The notes: generated from the letters alone by a model not told the origin. A stretch of 49,398 nt of DNA from Clostridiales bacterium (GCA_022508325.1 JAFLVL010000004.1:1-49398); one strand, 5' to 3'; numbered from the stretch's first letter, positions 32,489-49,395 are shown. Made by a program: numbers and translations.

Positions 32489-32515
32489 AGTTTACACATC
32501 AGCGGAGAATTGAAT

Positions 32516-33814
32516 ATGAACAATACGATAGTGGCATTGTCTACGGCGAGAGGGCGCGCAGCCATTGCCGTAGTGCGCATGAGCGGCGACAACGCAATAG
32601 ACATAGCCAAGCAATTTTTTCATCCGTTCCCGACCACGCCCAACACGTTGAAAGTAGGGACGCTTCATACCGAGCATTTTGACGAGCACGCCATGTGCGT
32701 GTACTTCGCCGCGCCCCATTCCTACACGGGAGAAAACACGGTAGAGTTCCACTGTCATGGCGGTACGGCTGTAAGTCAGGCAGTTATCGAGCAGTGCCTA
32801 AACCACGGCGCGGTGATGGCGCAAAACGGCGAATTCAGCAAGCGCGCGTTTATCAACGGCAAACAAAACCTGACCAATGCCGAGGGCATTATCGAGATGA
32901 TTGAGGCAGAGACGGCATCTGCGGCAAAGGCAGGGGCGAACCTGTTGGAGAACAAGCTCGGCAAGCGTGTTATCGAGCTGCAAGACAAGCTTCTCGACAT
33001 AATCTCATCTTGCGAGGCGGCGTTGGATTACCCCGAAGAGGAGCTTGAATTACCCACCACAAAAACAGTGCAAGAGCAACTAACCCAAGTTAGAGCTACG
33101 CTCGACGCGCTTATTGCGACGTCAACACTGGGAAAGGTGGCAAAGTACGGCATCGACGTGGCAATAGTCGGCAAACCCAATGTAGGCAAATCCAGTCTTT
33201 TGAACGCTCTGTTGGGTACAGACAGGGCAATTGTGTCAGATATTCAGGGCACTACTCGCGATACGCTATCCGAAAGCGTGAACTATCGAGACATAAAATT
33301 CAACTTTATCGATACCGCGGGATTGCGCGAAACCCACGACCAAATCGAGGCGGAGGGCGTCAAACGCGCCAAAAAAGCCGCCGACTCTGCCGACGTGGTG
33401 TTGCACGTAACCGACGACCCGACTGACAAGTCCGTTTACCCTACTATTCGTCCTCAGATACGCATTTACAATAAGAGCGACCTGTTCAAGAACAAACCCT
33501 GTTGTGTTGACAGCATAGTCGTATCGGCAAAAAGCGGCGAAGTGGAAGAAATCAAGGCTTCGCTCTACGAAATGTTCAGCGCGGGAGAGATTGAGAATTC
33601 CGACCTGCTGATAACCAACGAACGCCATCTTTCTTATCTAAAAAAGACGCGGCAACAAATCGAGGAAGCCATTGCCGATAGCAACGTGGCAACCCTTGAT
33701 ATAGTTGCGAGTAGCGTACGAGCCGCGTGGGAAACATTAGGTGAGATCACGGGAACGAACGCGCAAGAGGACATAATAAATAGAATATATAGCAGATTCT
33801 GCCTGGGTAAATAG
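32516..33814 (+). CDS. mnmE: tRNA modification GTPase MnmE
   Basis: TIVALST, SYTGEN..EFHCHGG, GKPNVGKSS, GTTRD, DTAGLR, FCLGK. Confidence 0.97.
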   Translation: MNNTIVALSTARGRAAIAVVRMSGDNAIDIAKQFFHPFPTTPNTLKVGTLHTEHFDEHAMCVYFAAPHSYTGENTVEFHCHGGTAVSQAVIEQCLNHGAVMAQNGEFSKRAFINGKQNLTNAEGIIEMIEAETASAAKAGANLLENKLGKRVIELQDKLLDIISSCEAALDYPEEELELPTTKTVQEQLTQVRATLDALIATSTLGKVAKYGIDVAIVGKPNVGKSSLLNALLGTDRAIVSDIQGTTRDTLSESVNYRDIKFNFIDTAGLRETHDQIEAEGVKRAKKAADSADVVLHVTDDPTDKSVYPTIRPQIRIYNKSDLFKNKPCCVDSIVVSAKSGEVEEIKASLYEMFSAGEIENSDLLITNERHLSYLKKTRQQIEEAIADSNVATLDIVASSVRAAWETLGEITGTNAQEDIINRIYSRFCLGK

Positions 33815-33963
33815 TGAGATTGGCTTACGCCGGTGAAATTTGCCTTAGGCAAGTAAAATTCGACTGTCGTCGAGTAAAATTTCTCGCATTCGCTCGAAGT
33901 TGCGATCAACATTTTTAGAGTAAAGTCGCCTTAACTTTACGCGTAAGCGTAACATTTCACTTC
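33814..33963. repeat. tandem GTRAAATT + mini-hairpin array (family E)
   Basis: GTRARATT at 33814, 33833, 33853 and 33874, the first three followed by a different 4-5 bp hairpin; inverted units AACTTTAC/ATTTCAC at the end. Confidence 0.7.
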
Positions 33964-33975
33964 ATATAGGAACTT

Positions 33976-35823
33976 ATGAAAAACTACGATATTATTGTTA
34001 TCGGCGCAGGACATGCGGGGTGTGAAGCCGCGCTAGCGTCCGCGCGTTTGGGGTGCTCGACACTTATGCTAGCCACCAATCTCGACACGGTGGCATTTCT
34101 TGCGTGCAATCCGAGCGTTGGCGGCACTGCAAAGGGGCAGATTGTCAAGGAAATTGACGCCTTAGGTGGCGAAATGGCTATAAACGCCGACAAAAGCCTT
34201 CTTCAAATGCGCATGTTGAACCGCGGCAAAGGTCCTGCGGTATATTCTCCGCGCGCGCAAGTCGACAAAAACGCCTACCACGTCAATATGAAACAGACGG
34301 TAGAGCACACACCCAATCTGTATCTCAGACAAGGTGAGGCAGTGGACGTCAGCGTCAACGACGACGGCAGTTTTGCCGTCAGGACGGCAGTGGAGCTCAC
34401 CTATCAAGCAAAAGCGGTGGTTTTGTGTTGCGGTGTATATCTCAATTCAAGAACAATCGTGGGCAAATGTGTCAAAAACAGCGGCCCCAACGGCTTTGCC
34501 AACGCAGAATTTTTAACGAACAGTCTCGTAAAGCTCGGTTTTTCTGTACAACGCTTTAAGACAGGCACGCCCGCAAGAGTTCGTCTTAATTCCATCGACC
34601 TAGACAAGACGGTAGAGCAATGCGGCGAAGAGGACGTTCGCCCATTCTCCTACCTTACTGACAGTATTCCCGCCACAAAGCGCAGTTGCTATCTGACATA
34701 TTCTACCGAAGAAACGAAACGGATAATTTTGGAAAACAAGCACCTTGCTCCTATCTATAACGGTAGCGTTTCGGGCGTCGGTCCTCGCTATTGCCCCAGC
34801 ATTGAGGACAAGGTGGTGCGCTTCGCAGATAAGGAAAGGCATCAAATTTTCTTAGAACCCGAGTCGGTGGATACCTGCGAATTCTACGTTCAAGGCGCGT
34901 CGTCGTCCATGCCCGCCGAAATTCAAGAGCAGATTTACAAGAGCATCGAAGGACTGGAAAACGTCGAGATTATGCGCGACGCCTACGCCATCGAATACGA
35001 CTGCATTGACGCAACACAGCTTGACGCAACGCTTATGGCGAAACATGTCAAGGGACTGTTCTTTGCAGGACAGATAAACGGCACTAGCGGCTATGAGGAA
35101 GCGGCAGGTCAGGGAATAGTTGCGGGTATCAACGCCGAACGTTTTGTCCACGGCAAATCGCCCTTCGTTCTGCGTCGCGACAACAGCTATATAGGCGTGC
35201 TGATTGACGACATTACGACTAAGCAAAATACCGAACCCTACCGCATGATGACCAGCCGCGCAGAACACCGTTTGGTACTTCGCCAGGACAACGCAGACCT
35301 ACGACTTTCGGACATGGGGTGGGAAATTGGGCTAGTTTCGCCCGAAAGATATGCAAAATTGCAACGAAAAAAGGCGCAAATTGCCGCAGCGGAAAAACAG
35401 CTTTCGAAGGTAGTCTCTCCCAAAATATACGGCAAGCTCTTTGAAGAAAAAGGCGAACCTATAACGGGCGCAGGGCTGACGGCGGACGAAATGCTACGCC
35501 GCGCTAATATCACCTGTAAGGACTTGCAGACTCTCGGTTTCTTCGAAGATATTGACGACGACGCGCTGTACGAGATTGAGATTGAGTGCAAGTACCGCGG
35601 TTACATTGAGAAGGAAAAGGAAGCGATAGCGCAGGCGAATAAGCTGGAAAATAAGCCCCTGCCCGACGACATAGACTACATGACTATCGACGGATTGCGT
35701 ATCGAGGCGCGACAAAAGCTTGACAAAATCCGTCCCAAGAACCTCGGACAAGCGGGACGAATTCTCGGCGTGTCACCTGCTGATATTCAAATACTGATTG
35801 TTTATTTGTCTACTAGAAAATGA
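33976..35823 (+). CDS. mnmG: tRNA uridine-5-carboxymethylaminomethyl synthesis enzyme MnmG (GidA)
   Basis: GAGHAGCEAA, CNPSVGG, RFKTGTP, GPRYCPSIEDK, AGQINGTSGYEEAA. Confidence 0.98.
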   Translation: MKNYDIIVIGAGHAGCEAALASARLGCSTLMLATNLDTVAFLACNPSVGGTAKGQIVKEIDALGGEMAINADKSLLQMRMLNRGKGPAVYSPRAQVDKNAYHVNMKQTVEHTPNLYLRQGEAVDVSVNDDGSFAVRTAVELTYQAKAVVLCCGVYLNSRTIVGKCVKNSGPNGFANAEFLTNSLVKLGFSVQRFKTGTPARVRLNSIDLDKTVEQCGEEDVRPFSYLTDSIPATKRSCYLTYSTEETKRIILENKHLAPIYNGSVSGVGPRYCPSIEDKVVRFADKERHQIFLEPESVDTCEFYVQGASSSMPAEIQEQIYKSIEGLENVEIMRDAYAIEYDCIDATQLDATLMAKHVKGLFFAGQINGTSGYEEAAGQGIVAGINAERFVHGKSPFVLRRDNSYIGVLIDDITTKQNTEPYRMMTSRAEHRLVLRQDNADLRLSDMGWEIGLVSPERYAKLQRKKAQIAAAEKQLSKVVSPKIYGKLFEEKGEPITGAGLTADEMLRRANITCKDLQTLGFFEDIDDDALYEIEIECKYRGYIEKEKEAIAQANKLENKPLPDDIDYMTIDGLRIEARQKLDKIRPKNLGQAGRILGVSPADIQILIVYLSTRK

Positions 35824-36497
35824 TAAAATTTTTACAAGAACAAGCAAATATTACGCTGACGGACGAAATGCGGCAAAAGCTTGACTTTTACTGCAAATTT
35901 TTGCGTGAGGAGAATAACAAGTATAATTTGACTGCGATAACCGACGAAGGCGAGATCTGGATTAAGCATTTCGTTGACAGTATTCTCGGCAGTGTGGCAA
36001 TTCCCGAAAACGCTACTGTTTGCGACGTGGGCAGTGGCGCAGGATTTCCCTGTTTGCCTCTTGCAATCGTTCGTCCCGACGTTGCAGTAACGCTCGTTGA
36101 TAGTCTGGAAAAACGCATCAATTTTACTAGGTCTCTTTGTCAACAGATAAATCTCAAGGCTGACTTTTTCCACGAGCGCGCAGAGGATTTTTCTCGACCC
36201 CATTCGGAAAAATTCAACGTTGCCACCGCGCGCGCAGTTGCGCCGCTGAATATTTTGTTGGAATACACCGCGCAAATAGTGAAGGTCGGAGGAATTATCG
36301 TCGCATACAAGACAGATTTGAGTGAGCTTGAAATAGCGGCAAACGCCTGCAGACTACTAAACTTACAATTTGAGACGCATTACGACTTCGTTCTGCCTGA
36401 CGGTAGCAGGCGCGCTATATTAGTTTTCCGCAAAATCGCGCCCACTCCGAATAAGTACCCCCGCGGACAAAACAAACCTAGAAAACAACCACTGTAA
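35820..36497 (+). CDS. rsmG: 16S rRNA m7G527 methyltransferase RsmG (GidB)
   Basis: NLTAI, HFVDS, DVGSGAGFP, ARAVA, KYPR. Confidence 0.97.
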   Translation: MIKFLQEQANITLTDEMRQKLDFYCKFLREENNKYNLTAITDEGEIWIKHFVDSILGSVAIPENATVCDVGSGAGFPCLPLAIVRPDVAVTLVDSLEKRINFTRSLCQQINLKADFFHERAEDFSRPHSEKFNVATARAVAPLNILLEYTAQIVKVGGIIVAYKTDLSELEIAANACRLLNLQFETHYDFVLPDGSRRAILVFRKIAPTPNKYPRGQNKPRKQPL

Positions 36498-36593: not shown

Positions 36594-37187
36594 CTATCTT
36601 CTGCGCTTTTTATCGCTGCGATAGACGAAATTAAGTGTTTTGCGGGGCGCGTTGGGGCTATTCAGAATATTGTTTTGCTGAATGGGCGTGATTACAATGT
36701 GGCGCGCCGAGCCTTGCCCCTCGCTTTGGGTTGTTACGTGTTGGCTGTTTTGCAAAGCGGTGTGAATAACGCGTCTTTCGTAGGGGTTCATCGGTTCCAG
36801 CTTGTGCTCGCGACCTGTACGCTTGACCTTTAATTCGAGGTTGTGTGCGAGCTTTTGCAACGCCTTTTCGCGTTTTGCCCTGTACCCTTCTGCGTCGAGA
36901 TTGACGCGCTTAAATTCCGAGTGACCGCCGTTCAATATCAAACTGCAAAGATATTGTAATGCGTCCAAAGTTTCTCCGCGGTATCCGATGGCACCTGAAG
37001 CGTCGTCGCCGACAATGTTCAATGCGACTGCGTCGCCAACTTCATTTACCTCAACTTGGCAGGAAAGTCCCATTTTTGAAAGCAAATTTTGCAAAAAATC
37101 TTGCATTTTCTGTGGCTCTGAGAGCTCAACAACCGCAGTTTCGGTCACTTCGGTGACTTCAACTTCGGTATTTTTCTTTTTTCTCAT
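36594..37187 (-). CDS. jag: Jag/EloR (KhpB) RNA-binding protein, KH + R3H, lacking Jag_N
   Basis: IGYRGETLDALQ KH motif; PMNPYERRVIH R3H motif. Confidence 0.92.
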   Translation of the reverse strand: MRKKKNTEVEVTEVTETAVVELSEPQKMQDFLQNLLSKMGLSCQVEVNEVGDAVALNIVGDDASGAIGYRGETLDALQYLCSLILNGGHSEFKRVNLDAEGYRAKREKALQKLAHNLELKVKRTGREHKLEPMNPYERRVIHTALQNSQHVTTQSEGQGSARHIVITPIQQNNILNSPNAPRKTLNFVYRSDKKRRR

Positions 37188-37191
37188 ATCG

Positions 37192-38475
37192 TTACCTCAT
37201 ATAGCTTGCCTTGGAAGAATTGCTCTTTTGCTCTTCCTTGTCAAGCATTTTCAATACGAACTTTTCTACCGGTATGCGAAGAACTATGGTGGTAAGAATG
37301 GAGATAGTAGAGTTGACCACCATGTATATTGCGAACGCGCCGGTGTAGATAAAGCCGAAATATGCCATCATAAGCGGCATCAGTATCATTGTCATTTTGT
37401 TGGTTGCTGCTTGCTGTTGATTTTGCTGTACAGTCTCGCCCTTACGGTTCTTGCGCTCCAAGCGTTGCAAAATGAACTGAGAGGCGAACGACAAACCTAT
37501 AGACAGGAAGGGCAGAATCATCAAGCCGTTCCAGTTACCGTTGTTGCCGTAGCCGCCCATTGCAAGCACTGCGCCACGAATGGTATTGTAAGTTACCTCA
37601 ATACCTTTGTAGTCACTAACGTCTATTCCCGACGAAGAGAATCCGCCACCGGCGAACACGCCGCCGCTATACGGTTGCATAATGGTTGCCCATGTGTCGG
37701 GTTGCCAAACGTTCTGAATCCACAACCAGCTTTCGTGGTTGTTGACGTACCAATCCTGTACAGCCTCCAACGCTTTGCTCTCGTATTCCGAGCAGAGTGT
37801 CGGGTTTACCATTTTCGCGCCGCTTATAATATCCGTTTGCGCATTGAGTATGTTTTTGGTACTTTCGGATTTTTTCGCCTCTTCATACTTAATAAAGACG
37901 TTCTCGTATCCTTCCCTGCTCTCGATTTGCGTGATTAACTCGTCGTTTTCCATAATTTGCTCAACGAACGTATCGTGGTAAGTATACGACAGGCTCTGGA
38001 AGGACGTGATACTGGAGTAAGTGGAGTAGTTCCTGAGTCCGCCGAACACTATGAAGAATATGACCATCGAGATTATCATAGGCAAACACATAGAAGCCAT
38101 GGAGTAGCCCTGTTTTTTGTAGAGCTTTTGCTTTTCTTCGTTTGCGCGTTGAGTATTTGCGCCAAACCGCTTGTCGATAGCCTCTACGAGCGGTTGGATT
38201 CTTTGCATTTTCAGCGAGCTTTTGCGCGAAGAATAGCGTTGCCAGAAGTCCAAAGGCAACATGAGTATCTTCAAAAACACGGTGAAAACTACAACCGTCC
38301 AACCGTAATTGCCTATCCACTTGTGCATAACGTACACAAGCTTGCCGATAATCCCCAGATCGTCTTTGGAGTAGTCAAAAAAGTTAGCTGAGCTTCTGTT
38401 ACAGCTACTTAGCACTCCCAAGCACAACGCCGCAAGCGCAATAAGCAATACGACGCTAAGTATTCTTTTTTTCAT
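37192..38475 (-). CDS. yidC: membrane protein insertase YidC/Oxa1
   Basis: Lipobox LSSC, NYGWTVVVFT, LYKKQG..MCLP, WLWIQNVWQPD. Confidence 0.92.
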   Translation of the reverse strand: MKKRILSVVLLIALAALCLGVLSSCNRSSANFFDYSKDDLGIIGKLVYVMHKWIGNYGWTVVVFTVFLKILMLPLDFWQRYSSRKSSLKMQRIQPLVEAIDKRFGANTQRANEEKQKLYKKQGYSMASMCLPMIISMVIFFIVFGGLRNYSTYSSITSFQSLSYTYHDTFVEQIMENDELITQIESREGYENVFIKYEEAKKSESTKNILNAQTDIISGAKMVNPTLCSEYESKALEAVQDWYVNNHESWLWIQNVWQPDTWATIMQPYSGGVFAGGGFSSSGIDVSDYKGIEVTYNTIRGAVLAMGGYGNNGNWNGLMILPFLSIGLSFASQFILQRLERKNRKGETVQQNQQQAATNKMTMILMPLMMAYFGFIYTGAFAIYMVVNSTISILTTIVLRIPVEKFVLKMLDKEEQKSNSSKASYMR

Positions 38476-38494
38476 TGTTTCTCCTGTTAACTAC

Positions 38495-38740
38495 CTATAC
38501 GTGCCACTTCGCGTTGCCTTTTAGGTTCATAGGCACCGGGTCGAAACCGCCCTTTCCCCAAGGCGCGCAACGGCAGAGTCGTTTGAGCGTCAGCCAACTG
38601 CCTGCAAAAAATCCGTGCTTTGTATACGCTTCCATGCTGTATACCGAGCAACTCGGGCTGTAAATACAGGTTTTGCCGCCCTTCCATTTGGAAACGGTGG
38701 CCTTGTATAGCTTAAGTAGGGCAATAGCCAAGTATTTCAT
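38495..38740 (-). CDS. yidD: membrane protein insertion efficiency factor YidD
   Basis: CIYSPSCSVY..KHG..RLCRCAPW..GGFDPVP. Confidence 0.95.
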   Translation of the reverse strand: MKYLAIALLKLYKATVSKWKGGKTCIYSPSCSVYSMEAYTKHGFFAGSWLTLKRLCRCAPWGKGGFDPVPMNLKGNAKWHV

Positions 38741-39069
38741 TGCAACAGCCCCGCCTTTTCAAACAGCTTTTGAACGCTCGCCACAATCTCGTCGTATCGG
38801 TACTCCTCGTGACGCCGCGGAATAAAAACAGCGTTGAACCCCTCTTTTACGTTGGGCATAAGCGTAGATACCGCCGCTTTCAGCTGTCGCCTTATGCGAT
38901 TGCGCTGTACCGCCTTGCCATATTTTTTGCTGACGGAAAAGCCAACCTTGCTTTGCTTGTTGTTGCTTGCGCAGTAGAGCAATATGAAGTTTTTGTCTGC
39001 AACGCTTGACGCGTGTTTGTACACGTAGTTGTATTGGTAGTTTTTTTTAAGTCTGTAGATAGACTTCAA
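38737..39069 (-). CDS. rnpA: ribonuclease P protein component
   Basis: RLKKN, VGFSVSKKYGKAVQRNRIRR. Confidence 0.96.
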   Translation of the reverse strand: MKSIYRLKKNYQYNYVYKHASSVADKNFILLYCASNNKQSKVGFSVSKKYGKAVQRNRIRRQLKAAVSTLMPNVKEGFNAVFIPRRHEEYRYDEIVASVQKLFEKAGLLQ

Positions 39070-39081
39070 AGCGACGACCTG

Positions 39082-39216
39082 TTATGCGGACAGCTTATGA
39101 CGACCCTTGTTTCTGCGTCTGGCAAGTGTTCTTCTGCCACCGGTGGTCTTCATTCTTGCGCGGAATCCGTGTACCTTGCTTCTTTGTCTTTTCTTGGGTT
39201 GGTAAGTTCTTTTCAT
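39082..39216 (-). CDS. rpmH: 50S ribosomal protein L34 (not in ORF track)
   Basis: [44 protein letters not shown], 44 aa, AAGGAG SD. Confidence 0.97.
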
Positions 39217-39361
39217 TTCGTTCTCCTTTTTGGGGTCGCGCCGCCACTGTCGTGGGGCATTGTTTTTGCGTGCAAAGTTATTTGCTTTTCATTGCTAATT
39301 ACGTATGCACAGCCTGCCTAAATGCGCGCATAATTCCCATAATAATATAATTAACTCGTAT

Positions 39362-39390
39362 ATTTTAACAAAGTATGGAAGTAAAGTCAA
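39362..39390 (-). promoter_or_regulatory. sigma-A promoter of the rpmH operon
   Basis: TTGACT-17 bp-(TGT)TAAAAT. Confidence 0.75.
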
Positions 39391-39456
39391 GTGTTTGGAG
39401 TTAGTCCGTCTAGCGCGCTAAATATTAGTTAAAATTGACGCTCCATTATTCGAAAA

Positions 39457-39570
39457 CACGACATGGGGTGGCGATTTTTGCAAATTTTGCTAATTATAAT
39501 ATTCGTATATCATAAGTGCGAGTTTTTTAGCAATTTTTGGCGAAAAATGCGATATGGGGTGAAAATTTTT
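39457..39570. repeat. ACCCCAT-motif paired block (family A)
   Basis: ATGGGGT cores at 39463 and 39554; homologous to the reverse complement of 21131-21246. Confidence 0.8.
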
Positions 39571-39625
39571 GATATTTTATTAGCAAAGAAATGTGGATTT
39601 TCAATTATTTATTTGCGACAAACCA

Positions 39626-39689
39626 TCGCTGTAAGGCGTATACGCTCCCAATAATAGCCCCACACGCGAGGTGGCGTCCGCGGCGAGCG
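39626..39689 (+). repeat. family C repeat, left of deoD
   Basis: TCGCTGTAAGGCG...TAGCCCCACACGCGAGGTGGCGTCCGCGGCGAGCG. Confidence 0.75.
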
Positions 39690-39715
39690 GTACGAAAGCA
39701 TCAGCAATTTCGGTA

Positions 39716-39744
39716 TTGACATTAGCGTTTTTTCAATTTATAAT
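39716..39744 (+). promoter_or_regulatory. consensus sigma-A promoter of deoD
   Basis: perfect TTGACA-17 bp-TATAAT. Confidence 0.9.
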
Positions 39745-39779
39745 TATGCTAACGAATATAAACACAAGGAGGCAATATT

Positions 39780-40484
39780 ATGCCAATACCTACCCCTCAC
39801 ATTTCAGCAAAAGAAGGCGATTTCGCTAAAACCGTGCTTATGCCGGGTGATCCGCTTCGCGCTAAGTACATTGCCGAGCATTATTTGACCGACGCAGTTC
39901 TCGTAAATAATGTGCGCGGCGTCCAAGGCTACACAGGCTACTACAACGGCAAACGCGTGTCCGTCATGGCTAGCGGAATGGGCATTCCTTCAATCGGAAT
40001 TTACAGCTATGAGCTGTTCAACTTCTACGGCGTGGAGAATATCATTCGCATAGGCTCCGCTGGCGCAATTCACCCCGATTTGAAGCTGAGAAACCTCGTT
40101 TTCGGTCAAGGCTCATGCACCAACAGCAACTACGCCGCTCAATTCGGTATGCCGGGTACCATCGCCCCCATTTGTTCGTTTGAACTGTTGGAAAAAGCCG
40201 TAAAAACCGCTAAAAAACTCAAATACACCTACAAAGTCGGCAATATTTTGGCTTCAGACACTTTCTATGATGACGGTGGCAGCTCGGCAGTTTGGAGCAA
40301 AATGGGAGTACTCGCTGTCGAAATGGAAAGCGCAGCCCTCTACCTCAACGCCGCTCGCGCAGGCAAGAACGCGCTCTGTATTTGCACAATCTCCGACCAT
40401 CTTCTGACAGGAGAAGAGCTCTCATCCGACGAAAGACAAAACTCTTTCAATGAAATGATGATTTTGGCATTAGAAATAGCATAG
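39780..40484 (+). CDS. deoD: purine-nucleoside phosphorylase (hexameric DeoD type)
   Basis: TPHI, MPGDPLRAKYIA, GMGIPS, RIGSAG, VEMES, ISDH; AAGGAGG SD. Confidence 0.96.
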   Translation: MPIPTPHISAKEGDFAKTVLMPGDPLRAKYIAEHYLTDAVLVNNVRGVQGYTGYYNGKRVSVMASGMGIPSIGIYSYELFNFYGVENIIRIGSAGAIHPDLKLRNLVFGQGSCTNSNYAAQFGMPGTIAPICSFELLEKAVKTAKKLKYTYKVGNILASDTFYDDGGSSAVWSKMGVLAVEMESAALYLNAARAGKNALCICTISDHLLTGEELSSDERQNSFNEMMILALEIA

Positions 40485-40498
40485 TGTTTTTTTTGGGT

Positions 40499-40539
40499 CG
40501 CTCGCCACTCAGGCGACTAATTTCCACGCTTTACGGCGA
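40499..40539 (-). repeat. family C repeat (short, inverted), right of deoD
   Basis: Minus strand TCGCCGTAAAGCGTGGAAATTAGTCGCCTGAGTGGCGAGCG. Confidence 0.75.
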
Positions 40540-40650
40540 GTATAAATTACCGATAAATAAATTTCACCTCAAAGGTTTCGTAAAAAACGTTGCTTTTGGG
40601 GTTTTTATTTTGATTGACACTAACAATACTATAAATTCACTCCATTTGTA

Positions 40651-40679
40651 TTGCAATTTGTATAAAAATATTGTATAAT
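40651..40679 (+). promoter_or_regulatory. sigma-A promoter reading through oriC into dnaN
   Basis: TTGCAA-17 bp-TATAAT. Confidence 0.7.
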
Positions 40680-40701
40680 TATTATAATTGCAGATAGTAC
40701 G

Positions 40702-40990
40702 CGTGGATTAGTTGACCGAAAATCGCCGTACGGCGGAAGTATTTTCCTAATCGCCCAGCCGACGAGGCTGCCTCCGCGGCGAGCGGGAGGCGAATCCACA
40801 AAAGATCCACATTTTCATGGGAAAACTTCCATGACTTATCCACAAGAATTATTTTAAACATAGCACAAAATGTTGGTGGTATGCCTGACATACCACCAAG
40901 ATATAGAAAACCACAAGGAAAAAACCACAAATTCACGTCGCCTAATACAAGTACTACTCAATAGAAGGGTAGTAGTTGTATGGGGCACGA
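40702..40990 (+). other. oriC: replication origin oriC (DnaA boxes + basal unwinding module)
   Basis: TTATCCACA at 40836-40844; degenerate boxes at 40702(rev), 40792, 40803, 40859, 40907, 40921, 40930; GC spacer TCGCC; DnaA-trios TAA TAC AAG TAC TAC at 40943-40957; lies upstream of dnaN where predominant gene orientation switches. Confidence 0.85.
40723..40785 (+). repeat. family C repeat inside oriC
   Basis: TCGCCGTACGGCG...TAATCGCCCAGCCGACGAGGCTGCCTCCGCGGCGAGCG. Confidence 0.8.
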
Positions 40991-41015
40991 GCAACAAATC
41001 AAAGGAGAATTTGGT

Positions 41016-42122
41016 ATGAAGATTATCGTAAACAGTCTGGATCTCAACGATGCAGTGACGAAGGTGTCTAAGGCTCTGTCTGTAAAAGACGTTGCACCTG
41101 TATTGGAATGCATCAAGATTACCGCTGACAACGACAAGCTGACGCTCTACGCTACGGACAAGGACCTTGCTATCGAGCGTACGATTGACGCGAACGTAAT
41201 AGTTGGCGGCGCGTTTCTCGTTCCGGGACGCATTTTCGGCGATTATATTCGCAATATTGCCGACAAAGGCAGCGATATCTCCCTTGAAATGGTGGACGAG
41301 AACCGCTTGCTAGTCAGTTCGCAGAGCAGCGAATGTAATATTGGCACTTTGGACGTAGAGGACTACCCCGAGATTGAGAGTATAAGCGGCAGCAATTACT
41401 TTGCAATTCAGGAGACCAACCTTCGTGAGATAATCTCTAACGTCATTTTCTCCGTAGCCACCGACGACAGCAGACCGATGCTACGCGGAGTGTACTTTGA
41501 GGCAAAGGATTACACTCTTTCGGCTGTTGCTACCGACGGATACCGCTTTGCAATGAGCAAAAAGGTGCTTGAAGAGCGCGTAGATGAGATTACTGCAACC
41601 ATTCCGTCAAGAAGTCTTTCCGAACTGTCTAAGCTACTCTCTGACTCGGACAATATTTTGAAGGTTTACATTGAGAATAACTACCTGCTCGTTTGCATGG
41701 AAGGTACAAAGCTGTTCACGCGACTGCTTGCAGGTTCGTACATAAAGTACGACAATATAGTTCCGAGAGAATTCCTGTCAACGTTACTTGTCAACAAAGA
41801 GACCTTTGAACGCGCGTTGAACACCGCTTCAATTATGTCGCGTAGCGAGAAGAATAACCTCGTCGTACTCGACATTGAAGAATACAACATGAACATTTCC
41901 TCGACAAGCCAATACGGTACGGCGAGAGAAAATATCACAATTTCCCTTTCAGGCAAGGACGTGCGTTGCGCGTACAACTCCAAGTACCTCAACGACTGCC
42001 TTAAGGTAATCAACGCCGAAACTATCAAGTTGGAATTTGCGCAACACAACAGCTGTGTAATCACCATCAAAGACAGCGACGAAGTGTTGTACTTCATTTT
42101 GCCTGTAAAACAAATTGTATAG
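41016..42122 (+). CDS. dnaN: DNA polymerase III beta sliding clamp
   Basis: ATD, SRPMLRGV, ATDGYR, YNSKYL, ILPV C-terminus; AAGGAG SD before ATG 41016. Confidence 0.96.
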   Translation: MKIIVNSLDLNDAVTKVSKALSVKDVAPVLECIKITADNDKLTLYATDKDLAIERTIDANVIVGGAFLVPGRIFGDYIRNIADKGSDISLEMVDENRLLVSSQSSECNIGTLDVEDYPEIESISGSNYFAIQETNLREIISNVIFSVATDDSRPMLRGVYFEAKDYTLSAVATDGYRFAMSKKVLEERVDEITATIPSRSLSELSKLLSDSDNILKVYIENNYLLVCMEGTKLFTRLLAGSYIKYDNIVPREFLSTLLVNKETFERALNTASIMSRSEKNNLVVLDIEEYNMNISSTSQYGTARENITISLSGKDVRCAYNSKYLNDCLKVINAETIKLEFAQHNSCVITIKDSDEVLYFILPVKQIV

Positions 42123-42184
42123 CGGCTCGGGTATTCGTGTGTGCTTCGAGCTACGCTAGGCGCACCAGCCGAACACCCTCGCCT
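42123..42184 (+). repeat. REP-like hairpin family B after dnaN stop
   Basis: CGGCTCGGGTATTCG...CCGAACACCCTCGCCT; GTAG at the hairpin foot on the minus strand. Confidence 0.85.
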
Positions 42185-42277
42185 ACATAAGAATATGGCA
42201 GTAAGACAATTTGAGGTGTAATCAGCCGAATACCCACGACCCTGTCTCGCTACGCTCGTAATTTAAAAAAACATGAT

Positions 42278-42319
42278 AAAAAAACAACCTTGTATTTAAA
42301 ATTGCAGGGTTGTTTTTTT
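42278..42319. terminator. bidirectional terminator
   Basis: AAAAAAACAACCTTGTA...TGCAGGGTTGTTTTTTT. Confidence 0.8.
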
Positions 42320-42403
42320 CGTATTTATAAAATTACTTGCACTGATATAGTGAAAATATTATAAATTTTATAAAATATTTAATAGTTTTATAATCACTAG
42401 CAT

Positions 42404-42466
42404 TCGCCGACAGGCGTATTGTTACACTTAGTCGCCTAGCCGACGAGGTAGTCCAAGCGGCGAGCG
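42404..42466 (+). repeat. family C repeat, left of rubrerythrin
   Basis: TCGCCGACAGGCG...TAGTCGCCTAGCCGACGAGGTAGTCCAAGCGGCGAGCG. Confidence 0.8.
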
Positions 42467-42484
42467 TATAATAGTCTCTATCTA

Positions 42485-43081
42485 TTATTTGGAAATACTG
42501 ACAAGATGCAGTAGTGCCGTGCCTTGTTTCGCTCCGCAGAGAGGGCAGGTGTCCCAACACTCTTTGCCGACCGTGGTATGTCCGCAACCCGAGCAGGTCC
42601 AGACGACTTCTTTCTTTTTCTTGTATAGACTGCCGTCTTTCATTTGCTGATACAGCTCTTTGAATATTGCCTCATGCTGAATTTCCACCTTTGCCGTCAT
42701 GTCGAAGAGGTCGGCAATATCAGTAAAGCCCTCTTGGCGCGCTGTTTCCGCCGCAGGAATGTAGATTTCATGCGCTTCCACGTGTTCATCGTCGGCGGCG
42801 AATTTGAGATTGTCGAGGATTTCCCACTTTTCCTTGAATGGGAATCCGCCGGCTATATCAATGTTGTCGATAGGCTTTGTGGACGCCTTTTGCAGGAACG
42901 TGTAGAACATACGGGCGTGGTTGAATTCTTGATAGGCTATGCTGTCTACGATTTCCGCCATAGTCTTGTAGCCGTTGTAACGCATACCGTATTCCATAAA
43001 TTCGTATCGCGTGCGCGCCTGACACTCGGCGGCGAAGGCTTTTGCAAGGTTTAGATACGTTTGACTGTCTATAAGCTTCAT
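42485..43081 (-). CDS. rubrerythrin
   Basis: NLAKAFAAECQAR, EFNH, EIQH diiron motifs; WTCSGCG..CPLC rubredoxin domain. Confidence 0.93.
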   Translation of the reverse strand: MKLIDSQTYLNLAKAFAAECQARTRYEFMEYGMRYNGYKTMAEIVDSIAYQEFNHARMFYTFLQKASTKPIDNIDIAGGFPFKEKWEILDNLKFAADDEHVEAHEIYIPAAETARQEGFTDIADLFDMTAKVEIQHEAIFKELYQQMKDGSLYKKKKEVVWTCSGCGHTTVGKECWDTCPLCGAKQGTALLHLVSISK

Positions 43082-43139
43082 ATAAAACTCCTTTTTTGCA
43101 AAATTATTGCCGCATTTGAGGTGTTTTATACTCTTTGTT

Positions 43140-43185
43140 CACTAGCCGCGGTGGCGACTAGGGAGAGTTTTGCGCCTTACGGCTA
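43140..43185 (-). repeat. family C repeat (short, inverted), right of rubrerythrin
   Basis: Minus strand TAGCCGTAAGGCGCAAAACTCTCCCTAGTCGCCACCGCGGCTAGTG. Confidence 0.7.
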
Positions 43186-43193
43186 GGTAGTAT

Positions 43194-43222
43194 TTGACAG
43201 ATATTGTATATAATGATAGAAT
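43194..43222 (+). promoter_or_regulatory. sigma-A promoter
   Basis: TTGACA-17 bp-(TGA)TAGAAT. Confidence 0.75.
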
Positions 43223-43253
43223 TAATCTACTTTAATATAGGAAATTACAAGCA

Positions 43254-44486
43254 ATGGAAAATAAACAAAAGAAAGACTTCAAAGAACGTTGCAAAGACCT
43301 GTGGAATTACTTTACTACCTACGAAAAAATTTGGTTTTTCAGTATACTCGTGCTGGCGATAGTGTTCTCCTTCATCTTTCCCGAGACGGACGACCCGACC
43401 TATACCGTAGCTATTGACCAAAGTACTTACGTTGCAAATGCAAGCGGCGAATATAACAGCATCTATTTCGGCGGCACTAACGGCGAATTTGTGCTTGTGG
43501 GGGTTACGGTAGGTGACAAAGAATACAGTTTGCTGGAAATCAGCGACTTTGCAGAATTTACCATTGATTCCGAAGAGCCTCAGACGCTATATTTGACGTT
43601 CAATGCTACCGACAAGGACGGAAACAAGTTTTGCTTCACTAAAGATAGCGCAATTTCCTTGGAATTTTACCAAGACAGTGACGGCGAAGATGACCAACTG
43701 TCCTTTACCGTTTGCAGAGGTGAAAAGTACAGCGGCGTAGACAAAGAGCAAAATCTGGTAACGGTCAAGGGTGTTGAGTTGATAGAAAACAAATACGACG
43801 GTTACGAAGTGGTGGAAAACGCGCAATACCCTGTTGCCGTGTGGATTATCACTGCGCTGTACCTTGCCGACGTAGTGCTGAACATTGCTTGCGAGCTACT
43901 TATATCAAAACAAAGCAAGTGGAACTTCATCGTTTCACTTGGTGTGGAAATTGTGGAAATTCTCGTCTGCATTCTATGCGCGTACAGGTTTGCTACTATG
44001 GCAGTCACATTGTTGTTCTGGATACCTTGCGATATTATCAGTTTCGTACTGTGGCACCGTCACCCCGACAGACAAAAGGAAGAGCTTACCGTCGTCAAAA
44101 AGCTCAACTGGTGGCAAGATATTCTAATTGTCGCGGGCATTGCGGTGTGGACTGTAGGTATTGGTTATCTCTTAACGCTCATCGAGGTTGAGGGCGGCAT
44201 ATTTGCCAACAACGTAATGCTCAAAAATATCGTGTGCTACATAGACGCTTGCGCGTCGGCTGTGGGCATAGCTAACGGTCTGTTGATACTTTTCCGCTAT
44301 CGCGAGCAATGGATTGCCTGGTATATCGTGGCAATTCTGGAAACGGTTATCAATATTATTGCAGGACAATGGGTGTTGCTGATACTCAAACTGGGCTACC
44401 TCACCAATACGACCTACGGCTATATAAAGTGGACGCAATACATTCGCCACCACAAAGAGGACTCGGGTATTCGTCTTGGTGTCTAG
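43254..44486 (+). CDS. PnuC-family nucleoside/nicotinamide riboside transporter with a large inserted soluble domain
   Basis: C-terminal TM bundle with WNF, YIDA, RYREQWIAW, YGYIKW motifs; ~150 aa hydrophilic insert after TM1. Confidence 0.8.
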   Translation: MENKQKKDFKERCKDLWNYFTTYEKIWFFSILVLAIVFSFIFPETDDPTYTVAIDQSTYVANASGEYNSIYFGGTNGEFVLVGVTVGDKEYSLLEISDFAEFTIDSEEPQTLYLTFNATDKDGNKFCFTKDSAISLEFYQDSDGEDDQLSFTVCRGEKYSGVDKEQNLVTVKGVELIENKYDGYEVVENAQYPVAVWIITALYLADVVLNIACELLISKQSKWNFIVSLGVEIVEILVCILCAYRFATMAVTLLFWIPCDIISFVLWHRHPDRQKEELTVVKKLNWWQDILIVAGIAVWTVGIGYLLTLIEVEGGIFANNVMLKNIVCYIDACASAVGIANGLLILFRYREQWIAWYIVAILETVINIIAGQWVLLILKLGYLTNTTYGYIKWTQYIRHHKEDSGIRLGV

Positions 44487-44531
44487 TGTTCACTTACGCT
44501 CTCAATGCCACCAATCCAAACACCCTCGCCC
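44459..44531 (+). repeat. REP-like hairpin family B overlapping the end of the pnuC-like gene
   Basis: GACTCGGGTATTCG...CAAACACCCTCGCCC. Confidence 0.75.
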
Positions 44532-44587
44532 ACATTAATATTGTCAAAGCTTTGAAATTTCAATTTCATGAGCTTAACAGAGGAAAT

Positions 44588-45346
44588 ATGAAAGAATTAT
44601 TGAATGCAGTGTACAAACGCAAATCTATGCGCAAATATAGCGGACGTTTGACCGAACAGGAACTTGCGCAAGTCAAGGACTATTTGCAACAGCTGAAGCC
44701 ACTCTGCCCCGAGATTAAGGTAGAATTCGAAGTCGTTCCCTGCAAGGACACCAACTGCAAGTTCAACGGCGAATATTGCCTGATAGTCTACAGCCAAGAG
44801 GGAAATTTGTGGCTTGCCAACATTGGCTATATGCTGGAGCAATGGGATTTGTACCTCGCGACGCTGAATATCGGCGTGTGCTGGTACGGCATGGGCAAAG
44901 TGGACGAAAATGAGAAAAACGGACTGAAATACGGAATTATGCTGTGCTTTGGCAAATGCGGCGAAGAAGATTTCCGCAAGGACGTCGGTGAATTCAACCG
45001 CAAGGACACCGATGATTTCTGGGCAATTGGCGACAGCGATAACGACGGTTTGCTTTTCGGCAAGGTGGGGCAGATTGTAAGACTTGCGCCGAGTGCGTGT
45101 AACAGTCAGCCTTGGCAAGTGGAGCAAGACGGTAATAGTCTAAGAGTGTACAGAGTAAAAGGCAACACTCCGGTGCTTTCGGGCATACTTTTCAAGCATT
45201 GGAACAAGGTTGACATTGGTATTTTCCTGACGTTTCTCGAAGTTGCGTTGGAAAGCGAGGGCTACACGTTCACGCGCGAGCTTCACTCAGACACCGACAG
45301 CAAAAAAAGAGTGCTCACGGCGACGTATTCACTTAATGTAGTTTGA
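44588..45346 (+). CDS. nitroreductase family protein (duplicated domain)
   Basis: RKSMRKY, LNIGVCW, LAPSACNSQPW, VDIGI; start moved to ATG 44588. Confidence 0.88.
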   Translation: MKELLNAVYKRKSMRKYSGRLTEQELAQVKDYLQQLKPLCPEIKVEFEVVPCKDTNCKFNGEYCLIVYSQEGNLWLANIGYMLEQWDLYLATLNIGVCWYGMGKVDENEKNGLKYGIMLCFGKCGEEDFRKDVGEFNRKDTDDFWAIGDSDNDGLLFGKVGQIVRLAPSACNSQPWQVEQDGNSLRVYRVKGNTPVLSGILFKHWNKVDIGIFLTFLEVALESEGYTFTRELHSDTDSKKRVLTATYSLNVV

Positions 45347-45421
45347 AAAATAAAAAGTAAAATTGGCAAGTAAAACAAAACTACTTGCCTCTATTTTATA
45401 TTACAAACATTTAATTGTTTG

Positions 45422-45450
45422 TTGCAAAATCGGCGCAAATTTGTTACAAT
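45422..45450 (+). promoter_or_regulatory. sigma-A promoter of dnaA (leaderless)
   Basis: TTGCAA-17 bp-(TGT)TACAAT, ATG 7 nt downstream. Confidence 0.7.
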
Positions 45451-45457
45451 TATACTT

Positions 45458-46825
45458 ATGTTGAAGATTAGCCAAATTTGGAAAAATATTTTGCTGGAAA
45501 CAGAGGCAAAAACCACGACGTTGGCGTACGATTTGTACATCAACACGTTGGAACCTATCGGCATTTACCACGATAGGCTGATTTTGCTTGCCGAGACGCG
45601 CGCGTTGAAGAATATCGTCAACAACAACTACAAGGACGTGCTTCGCGTCAGCGCCAAATCTGTATTTCCGTCCATTCTCGACGTGGAAGTCATAACAGAG
45701 GACGAATTGCCTCACGTGGGTAGCGTCGCACAAGAGGTGGATATCCCCGTCTCCAACAAATATATTGCGGAAACGGAAGACAAGGTCACCTTTGTGTCGC
45801 AATACACCTTCGAGAACTTCGTCGTCGGCAAATCCAACGATTACGCCGAGGCAGTAGCGCGTGCCGTTGCAGATAACCCGAGCGGCAAGTACAATCCCGT
45901 ATTTTTGTGGGGAGGCGTCGGCTTGGGCAAAACCCACCTGATGCACGCAATAGGCAACAGTTTACAGCGCAACTTTCCCGAAAAGAATATAATGTACGTC
46001 ACTTGCGAGCAATTCGTCAACGAGTTCATTGAGTCCATTGCCGACAACAAGAGTAACCCCAACGCAATGCGAAACTTCCGCACAAAGTACCGCAAGCTTG
46101 ACGTTTTCATGATGGACGACGTACAGTTCCTTGCCAATAAGGAAGGCGCGCAGGAAGAAATATTCAACACCTTCAACGAGCTGTATTTGGCAGACAAGCA
46201 GATAATTCTAAGCTCCGACCGCCCACCCAAGGAAATAAATATCGCAGAGCGTCTGAAAACGCGCTTTGCAACTGGCGTCATTGCCGACATCAAACCGCCC
46301 GATCTCGAAACGCGTATAGCAATTCTGCAAAAGAAGTGCAATTCCAAGGGTTACAACCTTACTATCAAGGTGCTGTCGCTGATTGCGGAGAAAATCACCA
46401 ACAACATTCGTGAAATGGAAGGTATGCTCAACCGCATTATCTCCTATTCCACCCTCGTTGGCGGCGACCCGAACGATATGGATATAGTAGCCGACGCATT
46501 GCGCGACTACGCCGACGCGTCAAATGACATTATCACCCTTGACCATATCGTTAAAGCCACTTGCGAATACTTCAACGTCAAAAAAGACGACCTGGTTGGC
46601 AAAAAGAAAAGCAAAGAAATCGTCATACCGCGCCAAATCTGTATTTATCTGATATGCGACATTTTGGGTACCAGCGTCCCCCTAGTTAAGATAGGCGAAT
46701 TCTTTGGCGGCAGAGACCACACGACCATAATGCACGCACGGGACAAAATTAGCGAAGAGTGCAAGACCAATGACGTCACCGCCGCGCAGGTGAAAGATAT
46801 TCGCGACAAGATTTATAATAGATAA
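45458..46825 (+). CDS. dnaA: chromosomal replication initiator DnaA
   Basis: YTFENFVVG, YNPVFLWGGVGLGKTHL, DDVQFL, SDRPP, NIREMEG, GGRDHTT. Confidence 0.97.
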   Translation: MLKISQIWKNILLETEAKTTTLAYDLYINTLEPIGIYHDRLILLAETRALKNIVNNNYKDVLRVSAKSVFPSILDVEVITEDELPHVGSVAQEVDIPVSNKYIAETEDKVTFVSQYTFENFVVGKSNDYAEAVARAVADNPSGKYNPVFLWGGVGLGKTHLMHAIGNSLQRNFPEKNIMYVTCEQFVNEFIESIADNKSNPNAMRNFRTKYRKLDVFMMDDVQFLANKEGAQEEIFNTFNELYLADKQIILSSDRPPKEINIAERLKTRFATGVIADIKPPDLETRIAILQKKCNSKGYNLTIKVLSLIAEKITNNIREMEGMLNRIISYSTLVGGDPNDMDIVADALRDYADASNDIITLDHIVKATCEYFNVKKDDLVGKKKSKEIVIPRQICIYLICDILGTSVPLVKIGEFFGGRDHTTIMHARDKISEECKTNDVTAAQVKDIRDKIYNR

Positions 46826-46912
46826 GGCTCGCGCATTCGGTTGAAAAAGGCTTCGGACGCAAAGGACGAAAGGCGCGTCCTGCAGAAAATTTTCAACCGA
46901 ACACACTCGCCT
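46826..46912 (+). repeat. REP-like hairpin family B variant after dnaA stop
   Basis: GGCTCGCGCATTCGGTTGAAAA...TTTTCAACCGAACACACTCGCCT; same termini, different interior. Confidence 0.75.
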
Positions 46913-46945
46913 TTGGTTATGGTTACCTCTAATATAGGACAAAAA

Positions 46946-47758
46946 ATGATTTATACGAAATTAAACGACGGCAGGAGTATGCCATTGCTCGGCTACGGCA
47001 CGTATAAGGTAGAGGGTGAAGTCGACCCCGAAAGGTGCGTTAGCGAGGCTCTCGAAGTTGGGTATCGCCTGATTGACACCGCAACGCTCTATCGCAACGA
47101 GGGCGAGATTGGCAGAGCGCTCAGCAAATGCGGCATAGCAAGAAACGAGTTGTTTATCACCACCAAACTGTGGACGGACGTAACCAACGAGGCGCAGGCA
47201 TTCGCATCGGCAGAAAGGTCGCTGAAACTGCTGAAATTGGACTACCTTGACTTGTTGCTCATACATTGGCCCACGGCGCATAGTGTAGAAGTGTATGAGG
47301 CAATGCTTAAAATGCGCGAGCAGGGGCTGGTGAAGTCTGTCGGCGTGTCCAACTTCAAAGAACACCATTTGGAGCAGGTTATTTTGGCAAGCGGAGTAAC
47401 GCCCGCGGTCAATCAAGTCGAGCTGCACCCGATTTTCCAACAAAAGGAGTTGAGGAGCTACTGCAATGGCAAAAATATTGTCGTTCAGGCTTGGTCCCCT
47501 CTTATGCGTAGCGTGGCGTTGAATCTAGATAATTTATCCGCAATTGCGGCAAAATATAACGTGACCGTGGCGCAGCTTATATTGCGTTGGGACGTTCAAA
47601 GCGGCATTTCTACTGTGCCCAAAACGACCAACAAGTCGCGCATGGTGGAAAATTTCAGTCTATTCGACTTTGAAATTTCGCCTGACGACATGCGTCAAAT
47701 TGAATTGCTAGACCAAAACGCGCGGCAATACCGCGACCCGGATAATCACGGCTTCTAA
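46946..47758 (+). CDS. aldo/keto reductase (2,5-DKG reductase-like)
   Basis: MPLLGYGT, IDTATLY, FITTKLW, LIHWP, GVSNF, NQVELHP; start moved to ATG 46946. Confidence 0.93.
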   Translation: MIYTKLNDGRSMPLLGYGTYKVEGEVDPERCVSEALEVGYRLIDTATLYRNEGEIGRALSKCGIARNELFITTKLWTDVTNEAQAFASAERSLKLLKLDYLDLLLIHWPTAHSVEVYEAMLKMREQGLVKSVGVSNFKEHHLEQVILASGVTPAVNQVELHPIFQQKELRSYCNGKNIVVQAWSPLMRSVALNLDNLSAIAAKYNVTVAQLILRWDVQSGISTVPKTTNKSRMVENFSLFDFEISPDDMRQIELLDQNARQYRDPDNHGF

Positions 47759-49319: not shown

Positions 49320-49395
49320 TGGTCTGAGTGACTGGACTTGAACCAGCGACCCCAAGACCCCCAGTCTTGTGCGCTACCAACTGCGCTACACCCAG
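49320..49395 (-). tRNA. tRNA-Pro (GGG)
   Basis: CTGGGTGTAGCGCAGTTGGTAGCGCACAAGACTGGGGGTCTTGGGGTCGCTGGTTCAAGTCCAGTCACTCAGACCA, 76 nt with CCA. Confidence 0.96.

Follow-up and report, generated by a model that had tools for sequence, protein, structure and literature searches.

Gene order around dnaN and dnaA

The putative replication origin (oriC) of an uncultured gut bacterium of the Clostridiales, and its relation to dnaN and dnaA, were analysed in a 49,398-bp stretch of DNA (GCA_022508325.1, JAFLVL010000004.1; hereafter the window). The window is one whole contig (C34) of a metagenome-assembled genome (MAG), G000, which comprises 1,308,558 bp in 77 contigs and is 76.9% complete; all coordinates are positions in the window unless another contig is named. 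The gene order was taken from an open reading frame (ORF) listing together with Pfam matches. It runs rpmH (leftward), deoD (rightward), a 531-bp gap, dnaN (rightward), rbr (leftward), and then pnuC, a nitroreductase gene, dnaA and an aldo/keto reductase (AKR) gene, all rightward, which is the order that the original prediction had read. To the left of rpmH lie parB and parA (minus strand), mnmE, mnmG and rsmG (plus strand), and jag, yidC, yidD and rnpA (minus strand).

rpmH (ribosomal protein L34; 39082–39216, minus strand; Pfam Ribosomal_L34, 7.5e-21) is the first gene of an rpmH-rnpA-yidD-yidC-jag block, and a deoD-like purine nucleoside phosphorylase gene (39780–40484, plus strand; PNP_UDP_1, 1e-34) follows it. 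dnaN (41016–42122, plus strand) encodes a sliding clamp of 368 aa with three DNA_pol3_beta domains and is preceded by the ribosome-binding site (RBS) AAAGGAG at 41001–41007; its start was corrected from 40980 to 41016 (MKIIVNSL...) according to relatives. dnaA (45458–46825, plus strand; 455 aa; Bac_DnaA, 7.5e-62; Bac_DnaA_C, 1.4e-24), the start of which was moved in the same way from 45419 to 45458 (MLKISQIW...), begins 4.4 kb downstream of the dnaN start and 3.3 kb past the dnaN stop codon.

In Bacillus subtilis, oriC extends from the leftward rpmH through the incA/B boxes, dnaA, the incC boxes, trios and AT-rich DNA to dnaN. This canonical bipartite layout of Firmicutes, in which dnaA is flanked by two box clusters and lies next to rpmH and dnaN, was not found in the window. 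recF and gyrB, which had been described as not adjacent, are indeed on contigs other than that of dnaN in this assembly, and lie 47–63 kb from dnaN in two close relatives.

DnaA boxes and a trio-like module upstream of dnaN

Within the 531-bp gap, a predicted dnaN promoter (TTGCAA-17-TATAAT; 40651–40679, plus strand; 10/12 in the consensus scan) lies 5′ of the DnaA boxes and is conserved in the genus. In the stability profile of the region, it coincides with the 40-bp stretch of lowest stability. The proposal in the original prediction that dnaN has a promoter of its own, firing through the origin, agrees with this candidate site. The AT-rich DNA at 40600–40690 is this promoter, and it lies on the unexpected side of the boxes for box-guided unwinding.

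Three co-oriented DnaA boxes follow on the plus strand at 40792–40844, namely GAATCCACA (40792–40800), AGATCCACA (40803–40811) and TTATCCACA (40836–40844). All are within 53 bp and have 0, 2 or 2 mismatches, the copy of TTATCCACA at 40836–40844 being the sole perfect box of the window. Three co-oriented TCCACA cores within 80 bp occur only here among 535 cores in 1,308,558 bases, a criterion that was picked after the site had been seen. Directly 3′ of the strongest box lies a conserved motif of ~27 nt (40848–40874, plus strand; genus alignment), the first 9 nt of which (ATT ATT TTA) fit the published NAN-trio rule. The dnaN-proximal module (40907–40959, plus strand) contains the degenerate boxes AAAACCACA, at 40907–40915 and 40921–40929, and AATTCACGT, at 40930–40938; a 3-nt GC spacer and then CTA ATA CAA GTA CTA CTC (40942–40959) come after them. 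Between the box cluster and this module, in a spacer that varies among relatives, there is a hairpin with an 11-bp stem (40873–40899, plus strand; −18.3 kcal/mol, z −5.65).

At least one box with ≤1 mismatch was found upstream of dnaN in 24 of 26 genus loci, mostly on the plus strand and at −180 to −240. The 26 loci include three duplicates of the same genome, and the 23 non-duplicate loci were aligned. The conserved blocks in this alignment were the TTGCAA-17-TGTATAAT promoter, the boxes, the ~27-nt motif, the tandem box pair and a CTAATA..CTACTAC run ~40–60 bp before the RBS. These blocks are conserved despite differing flanking genes, and the rest of the intergenic DNA in these species could not be aligned. 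Within the family but outside the genus, a box and up to five CTA repeats (five in G031) are present just upstream of dnaN, CTA repeats being 3′-GAT-5′ on the other strand. There the module is kept whether dnaA is in tandem, head-to-head or remote. In most of the members compared, G034 being an exception, the dnaN promoter is upstream of the module. Judged by sequence, the dnaN-proximal module of the window is the homologue of the textbook box and CTA-repeat module in these genera.

These results suggest that oriC is one compact module of ~370 bp (40650–41015) within the dnaN transcription unit, and we put the probability that the origin sits at dnaN in this form at roughly 0.7. Reading from left to right, the origin would consist of a sigma-70-type promoter, three boxes, the conserved motif, the box-plus-trio module, the RBS and dnaN. 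DnaA would bind to the boxes, oligomerise rightwards onto the trio strand and open the DNA just upstream of dnaN, and transcription from the dnaN promoter would read through the origin. The monopartite origin at dnaN that had been predicted is supported by the alignment, the unique TCCACA triple, and the GC skew, trio-rule counts and box-poor rpmH side described below.

Occurrence of the box-to-trio pattern

The rule of the basal unwinding system (BUS), in the form given in PMC8287927, asks for a DnaA box (≤2 mismatches) that is followed at ≤16 bp by at least three consecutive NAN trios. It was coded as a script and applied to 41 dnaN-upstream loci, with shuffles as control. In this form the pattern was found upstream of dnaN in 35 of the 41 loci (shuffle mean 4.8, maximum 10), upstream of dnaA in 8 of 41 and upstream of rpmH in none of 22. 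The window contains it only once, as TTATCCACA at 40836–40844, 3 bp and ATT ATT TTA. A stricter pattern, drawn from the same source, consists of tandem boxes, box-proximal trios of the 3′-GAT-5′ type, a spacer of ~10–13 bp and then AT-rich DNA. This pattern was seen cleanly in the outgroups G031, G069 and G035. The strand logic, with trios on the strand running 5′ away from the boxes, follows a '5′-tail' statement in PMC8287927.

The gap between rpmH and deoD

The intergenic region between rpmH and deoD (39217–39779) contains promoter-like sites for rpmH (39390–39362, minus strand) and deoD (39716–39744, plus strand). The single degenerate box reported beside rpmH, TGTGGATTT at 39592, was present as a box-like site, and the box scan of the window gave no box with ≤1 mismatch in 39217–39779. 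By eye, two direct repeats of ~33 nt (39463–39497 and 39553–39585, ~90 bp apart) were also observed in this gap. They share ATGGGGTG...ATTTTTG...ATTTT, and the repeat tool did not list them.

Given the length (563 and 531 bp) and AT-richness of the two gaps, the copy of the repeat family B (described below) in each of them, and the degenerate box in the first, the origin could be bipartite as in Bacillus or Clostridioides, with deoD as a spacer and 39217–39779 as its second half. We consider this very improbable. Besides the window gap, the 600 bp upstream of rpmH held no box in 23 of 27 loci, and the BUS rule, as worded above, found nothing in the rpmH-upstream regions. Moreover, deoD is absent between rpmH and dnaN in G006 and flips alone in several species, and rpmH is 14–25 kb from dnaN in many genus members.

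GC skew, partition sites and a stronger box cluster on contig C21

The cumulative GC skew of the window has its minimum at 42,695, near the origin as had been predicted, at a resolution of a few kb. Two relatives with the gene order of the window have minima 0.6–0.7 kb from dnaN and ~2 kb from its upstream region. In G017 (contig C12) the minimum is at 99,245, a clean V over 250 kb, with dnaN at 99,866–100,969, and in G041 (contig C1) it is at 836,456 on 400 kb, with dnaN at 837,111–838,214.

Four parS sites, the only ones of the assembly, were found at 23681–24355, ~17 kb from the putative origin, and parAB lies at 30.4–32.1 kb. Two of the sites are perfect and two have one mismatch, with spacings of 205, 314 and 140 bp. 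They are in a 2.6-kb stretch (23.1–25.7 kb) with a GC content of 0.34–0.38 and no ORF of ≥70 aa, which looks like a dedicated centromere-like region.

The assembly has its strongest cluster of DnaA boxes on another contig (G000:C21:3620–3663, locus L095), where TTGTCCACA accompanies two perfect boxes separated by 3 bp. The cluster occupies the divergent gap between a 413-aa gene without a Pfam family and an Amidase_3 gene, with tmk and holB 3–5 kb downstream. It may act as a titration site or as a promoter under DnaA control. An alternative reading is that the boxes at dnaN are only a DnaA operator for tuning dnaN transcription, with initiation elsewhere, for example at the C21 cluster or on DNA missing from the 77% complete assembly. 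The boxes are downstream of the dnaN promoter, and DnaA bound there could block transcription; the best 9-mer cluster of the assembly, moreover, is C21:3620–3655. Nevertheless, the skew minima of the window and of the long contigs of the two relatives fall within ~2 kb of the dnaN-upstream region, and parS, parAB, mnmEG, rsmG, jag, yidC, rnpA and rpmH are all on the contig of dnaN. The module of box and CTA trios at dnaN is kept across the family, and homologues of the genes on either side of the C21 cluster were not found in the 400-kb (G041) and 250-kb (G017) origin-containing stretches. We regard an operator in place of an origin as improbable, and the two roles are mutually compatible.

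Several observations weigh against placing oriC upstream of dnaN. Judged by the 9-mer consensus, the dnaN-upstream cluster is weak, with only one box of ≤1 mismatch, and it is topped in 9-mer score by C21:3620–3655 (two perfect boxes and one with 1 mismatch). Past the trios, the sequence lacks AT-richness (0.55–0.62 AT), and the lowest stability is found at the promoter (40650–40700), which lies 5′ of the boxes. The orientation of the trio strand relative to the boxes comes in part from general background on origins. The BUS rule is permissive in AT-rich DNA, and 12 of the 41 loci also gave it on the opposite strand. The dnaN-proximal module of the window falls outside the rule: in the family-conserved part (40921–40959), which has a 12-bp spacer and starts with CTA, the AAAACCACA box has 3 mismatches and the NAN run breaks after 2. 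The skew resolution of a few kb does not separate the dnaN-upstream from the dnaA-upstream region (4.5 kb), and in G016 (contig C29), with 25 kb between dnaN and dnaA, a broad minimum 8 kb from dnaN shows lows at 104 and 126 kb. At 76.9% completeness, a second dnaA or a better box cluster may sit on missing DNA. Finally, the promoters, the leaderless start discussed below and all binding and unwinding steps are deduced from the nucleotide sequence.

dnaA is transcribed from a predicted box-free promoter

One full dnaA was found in the Pfam search of the 77 contigs. The sole other Bac_DnaA match is accounted for by a DnaI-like gene that follows a DnaD/DnaB_2 gene on contig C5. In 45 other genus genomes, 43 had one dnaA match; G002 had two pieces of one gene and G010 had none. 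As far as the data go, a second dnaA in canonical context, which would have undermined the original prediction, was thus not seen.

The dnaA gene, 4.4 kb downstream of dnaN and behind rbr, pnuC and the nitroreductase gene, has a candidate promoter of its own, TTGCAA-17-TACAAT with TG (45422–45450, plus strand; consensus scan), and a hairpin lies upstream of it at 45365–45389, after the nitroreductase gene. Neither a Shine-Dalgarno sequence nor a DnaA box was found at this promoter, and the window scan gave no box with ≤1 mismatch between 43848 and 47534. The promoter ends 7 nt before the ATG, suggesting that the dnaA mRNA is probably leaderless. Across the genus, the −10 hexamer is 5–8 nt from the ATG of dnaA, and in outgroup genera the dnaA leader is ~30 nt long with a Shine-Dalgarno sequence. 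No box with ≤1 mismatch was found within 600 bp upstream of dnaA in 19 of 22 genus loci. The uncoupling of dnaA from boxes at its promoter, which had been proposed for the window, therefore extends to most of the genus loci. A box-free promoter for dnaA makes box-mediated autorepression there unlikely. YabA (PF06156), a candidate for regulating DnaA in another way, was matched in none of 82 family genomes by this one Pfam model, which did match the B. subtilis and Lactococcus lactis controls.

Arrangements of dnaN and dnaA in relatives

The nearest public relatives are uncultured Clostridia and Oscillospiraceae MAGs and 'Candidatus Fimimonas gallinarum', with a DnaA identity of 74–86%, and the next ones, with ~43% DnaA identity, are labelled Christensenella or Christensenellaceae. 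Placement in the Clostridia was based on gene content (DnaD/DnaI loader, jag, rubrerythrin) and on the labels of the other relatives. In the NCBI taxonomy, 'Candidatus Fimimonas' is placed among Myxococcaceae incertae sedis, and the title of one relative MAG reads 'Corallococcus sp.'; this placement was not used, and the Myxococcaceae filing is probably a public mislabel.

The order rpmH-deoD-dnaN-rbr-pnuC-nitroreductase-dnaA was also present in the MAGs of four other species (G005, G017, G041 and G042), on contigs of 250 kb to 1.1 Mb, and is therefore not a misassembly. The quick IQ-TREE tree of DnaN alone, with midpoint root, is only indicative. In it the window type (window, G017, G041 and G042, with G005 nearby) is apart from a block-inverted type (seven rows, support 97), and since the arrangement types track the DnaN clades, they are inherited events rather than assembly noise. 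The misassembly raised in the original prediction as a possible refutation, or an artefact of binning, is thus extremely improbable, and the GC skew is continuous across the region. What speaks for an artefact is that the MAG is in 77 contigs and that the window is a whole contig ending in tRNA genes. It starts inside a tRNA gene (1–49) and ends with tRNA-Pro(GGG) (49320–49395), indicating that the assembly breaks fall at tRNA genes. In addition, a public rodent-gut metagenome run, in which 0.17 of the sampled words were found, gave contigs of 150–380 nt at a depth of 2–5 that are too short to re-check the junctions. Except at the deoD stop region, no junction was spanned by them, and there was no yield from two sister runs; this result is neutral on the assembly.

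At the level of the order, dnaA and dnaN are adjacent in the canonical dnaA→dnaN arrangement in 7 of 12 genomes from other families. In the family outside the genus, dnaN and dnaA share a contig in 28 genomes, and in 25 of these they are head-to-head (dnaN←→dnaA) across a gap of ~210–780 bp; one of the rest is canonical and two have dnaN and dnaA more than 130 kb apart. In seven more family genomes outside the genus, the two genes are on different contigs. Within the genus, dnaN and dnaA were adjacent in none of the 25 genomes with both on one contig: 13 have dnaN→dnaA in tandem at 0.9–5.1 kb, 9 are divergent at 7–25 kb, 2 are convergent and 1 is dnaA→dnaN at 4.6 kb. Several of the head-to-head family genomes read jag, yidC, rnpA, rpmH and dnaN on one strand and then dnaA on the other. 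The nearest outgroup, G082, has rpmH (leftward), deoD (rightward), dnaN (leftward) and dnaA (rightward), with the putative origin between the last two. Local maps in the genus showed a clean inversion of the whole block from jag to rpmH, deoD and dnaN between rsmG and rbr, and other rearrangements included flipping of deoD and dnaA→rpmH tandems. Mapping of the inversion breakpoints by blastn against eight relatives did not succeed, as the genes align with 65–81% identity and the intergenic DNA does not.

Compared across these loci, the origin at dnaN without adjacent dnaA is a genus-wide state, derived from the family-wide head-to-head arrangement, and not the private dismantling that had been suggested for the window. 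The order in G082 indicates that deoD already adjoined rpmH before an inversion of the ori-dnaN block; deoD need not have taken the slot of dnaA, as the original prediction had it, because one such inversion suffices. The layout would have arisen stepwise. The mostly canonical dnaA→dnaN of the order would have given way to the mostly head-to-head dnaN←ori→dnaA of the family, and in an ancestor resembling G082 the ori-dnaN block would have been inverted to give rpmH (leftward), deoD, ori, dnaN and dnaA (rightward). Insertion of rbr (types G047, G044 and G054) and then of pnuC and the nitroreductase gene would have led to the order of the window, with further small inversions in the genus.

Through all rearrangements compared, the module of boxes and trios stays directly upstream of dnaN. 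A plausible reason is that in most members the dnaN promoter lies upstream of the origin, so that an essential gene would fall silent if the two were separated.

Repeat families B and C

Three copies of a repeat family (family B, ~85 nt) were found by nhmmer on the plus strand at 39617–39703, 40713–40795 and 42395–42480, and a fourth copy of the assembly at G000:C14:625–692. The three copies are in direct orientation and, in the manner of cassette borders, lie on either side of deoD and of the ori-dnaN unit. The second copy is inserted between the dnaN promoter and the boxes, at a position that is a gap in the alignment for most genus members. Only G017 and G042 have copies at analogous places, in G042 one of them between promoter and boxes.

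Family C is an imperfect hairpin of ~75 nt with 109 copies on 46 of the 77 contigs (nhmmer). Six copies are in the window, each just past a stop codon and oriented like that gene, including one right after the dnaN stop codon (42122–42194, plus strand; E 4.4e-19), one at the 3′ end of pnuC (44459–44540, plus strand) and a weak one after the dnaA stop codon (46825–46913, plus strand; E 5.5e-4). With many dispersed intergenic copies and predicted hairpin potential, family C has the features of a REP-like gene-end repeat. It resembles REP, BIME and BOX repeats in its dispersal, its ~75-nt hairpin, its copy number and its gene-end position, but it has no known sequence relationship to them and had no match in the 58 relatives' loci searched. 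The folding energies of families B and C as RNA were no better than those of shuffles. The Rfam gathering scan of the whole window gave tRNAs only, and in 38.5–47.5 kb, scanned at E ≤ 1, nothing came up except three chance matches below threshold (mir-246, AsdA and Thr leader), indicating that families B and C are not known RNA families.

Repeats had been described at nearly every junction, and recombination between copies of families B and C had been suggested as the driver of the rearrangements. A copy was found at 5 of the 7 junctions from rpmH to the AKR gene; the rbr–pnuC and nitroreductase–dnaA junctions have none, and the copy at the dnaA–AKR junction is the weak one. Five C copies are in 6.3 kb (42.1–48.4 kb), versus a genome average of ~1 per 12 kb, three of the four B copies of the assembly flank deoD and ori-dnaN, and the breakpoints between species fall in the same intergenic gaps. 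However, family C is spread over the whole genome and, given its absence from the relatives' loci, cannot explain genus-wide shuffling, and its copies follow stop codons in the same direction, as gene-end elements generally do. The B copies are direct repeats, which favour deletion over inversion, and are confined to the closest relatives; the rsmG–jag breakpoint has neither family, and at ~75% identity the breakpoints are not resolvable. The local concentration of copies is thus genuine, and the proposed repeat-driven shuffling is unsupported and judged unlikely.

Comparison with known origins

The window resembles the BUS of B. subtilis oriC, as described in PMC8287927 (Richardson/Pelliciari/Murray), in that boxes and then trio-like repeats are directly upstream of dnaN. 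As in origins of this type, transcription towards dnaN would read through the dnaN-proximal half. Unlike them, the window has no dnaA between box clusters, no box cluster at the rpmH or dnaA promoter, a dedicated dnaN promoter upstream of the boxes, and a degenerate proximal box (3 mismatches). In Synechococcus elongatus PCC 7942 and other cyanobacteria, according to PMC7198777, oriC is beside dnaN and dnaA is unlinked. The window is similar to this description, since its putative oriC adjoins dnaN and dnaA is adjacent to neither. In contrast to the cyanobacteria, it belongs to a different phylum, its dnaA lies on the same replichore at a distance of only 4.4 kb, and its layout can be traced through intermediates in one family, where the neighbourhood keeps inverting. 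The context of oriC is not strictly conserved among bacteria (gidA-mioC in E. coli, for example), according to a review that does not cover this lineage, and a literature search with 'Christensenellales' and 'oriC' found no paper on origins in it. The layout is thus an unusual but not unprecedented bacterial variant. To our knowledge, neither a head-to-head dnaN/dnaA pair that shares the origin gap across a family nor a genus with dnaA fully detached and apparently leaderless has been described.

Linkage of dnaA, oriC and dnaN is used for origin prediction and is often taken as functionally important in Firmicutes. In dozens of related genomes, dnaA is in tandem, head-to-head, convergent or kilobases away, and the module never leaves dnaN. 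This constancy supports the dnaN-proximal unwinding module as the indispensable core of the origin, with the dnaN promoter upstream of it as a simple candidate reason for the linkage, and autoregulation of dnaA via promoter boxes would be dispensable in nature. In these gut MAGs, origin finders that use dnaA as their anchor would be wrong about the position of oriC by several kb or more, which affects skew-based contig ordering and growth-rate (peak-to-trough) estimates.

A broader reading is offered tentatively, as one that we think possible and not probable. In the family, the unwinding module would lie in the 5′ leader of dnaN and form an indivisible ori-dnaN cassette; in the genus, dnaA would have escaped to a box-free, leaderless state, and control would act via DnaA occupancy of the dnaN leader. 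If so, this occupancy would couple clamp synthesis and read-through transcription to origin firing, in place of dnaA autorepression, and the rearrangements in the genus would amount to a series of natural 'experiments' on the linkage that an origin requires.

Other genes of the region

The rubrerythrin gene rbr is at 42485–43081 (minus strand; Pfam). The TM1586-type nitroreductase gene is at 44546–45346 (plus strand), with an approximate start, the Pfam match beginning at residue 97 of the ORF at 44309–45346, and the AKR gene is at 46841–47758 (plus strand; ORF, Pfam). mnmE-mnmG-rsmG (32510–36497) is on the strand opposite to jag-yidC-rnpA-rpmH (36594–39216) and consequently runs against the presumed direction of replication on that side; this orientation is another local inversion with respect to the usual Firmicutes block. 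The PnuC-type transporter gene (43254–44486, plus strand; Pfam) has a promoter-like site at 43194–43222. Its product carries an N-terminal extension of ~200 aa without a Pfam match, the NMN_transporter domain covering residues 202–394 only, and this full length is kept in relatives.

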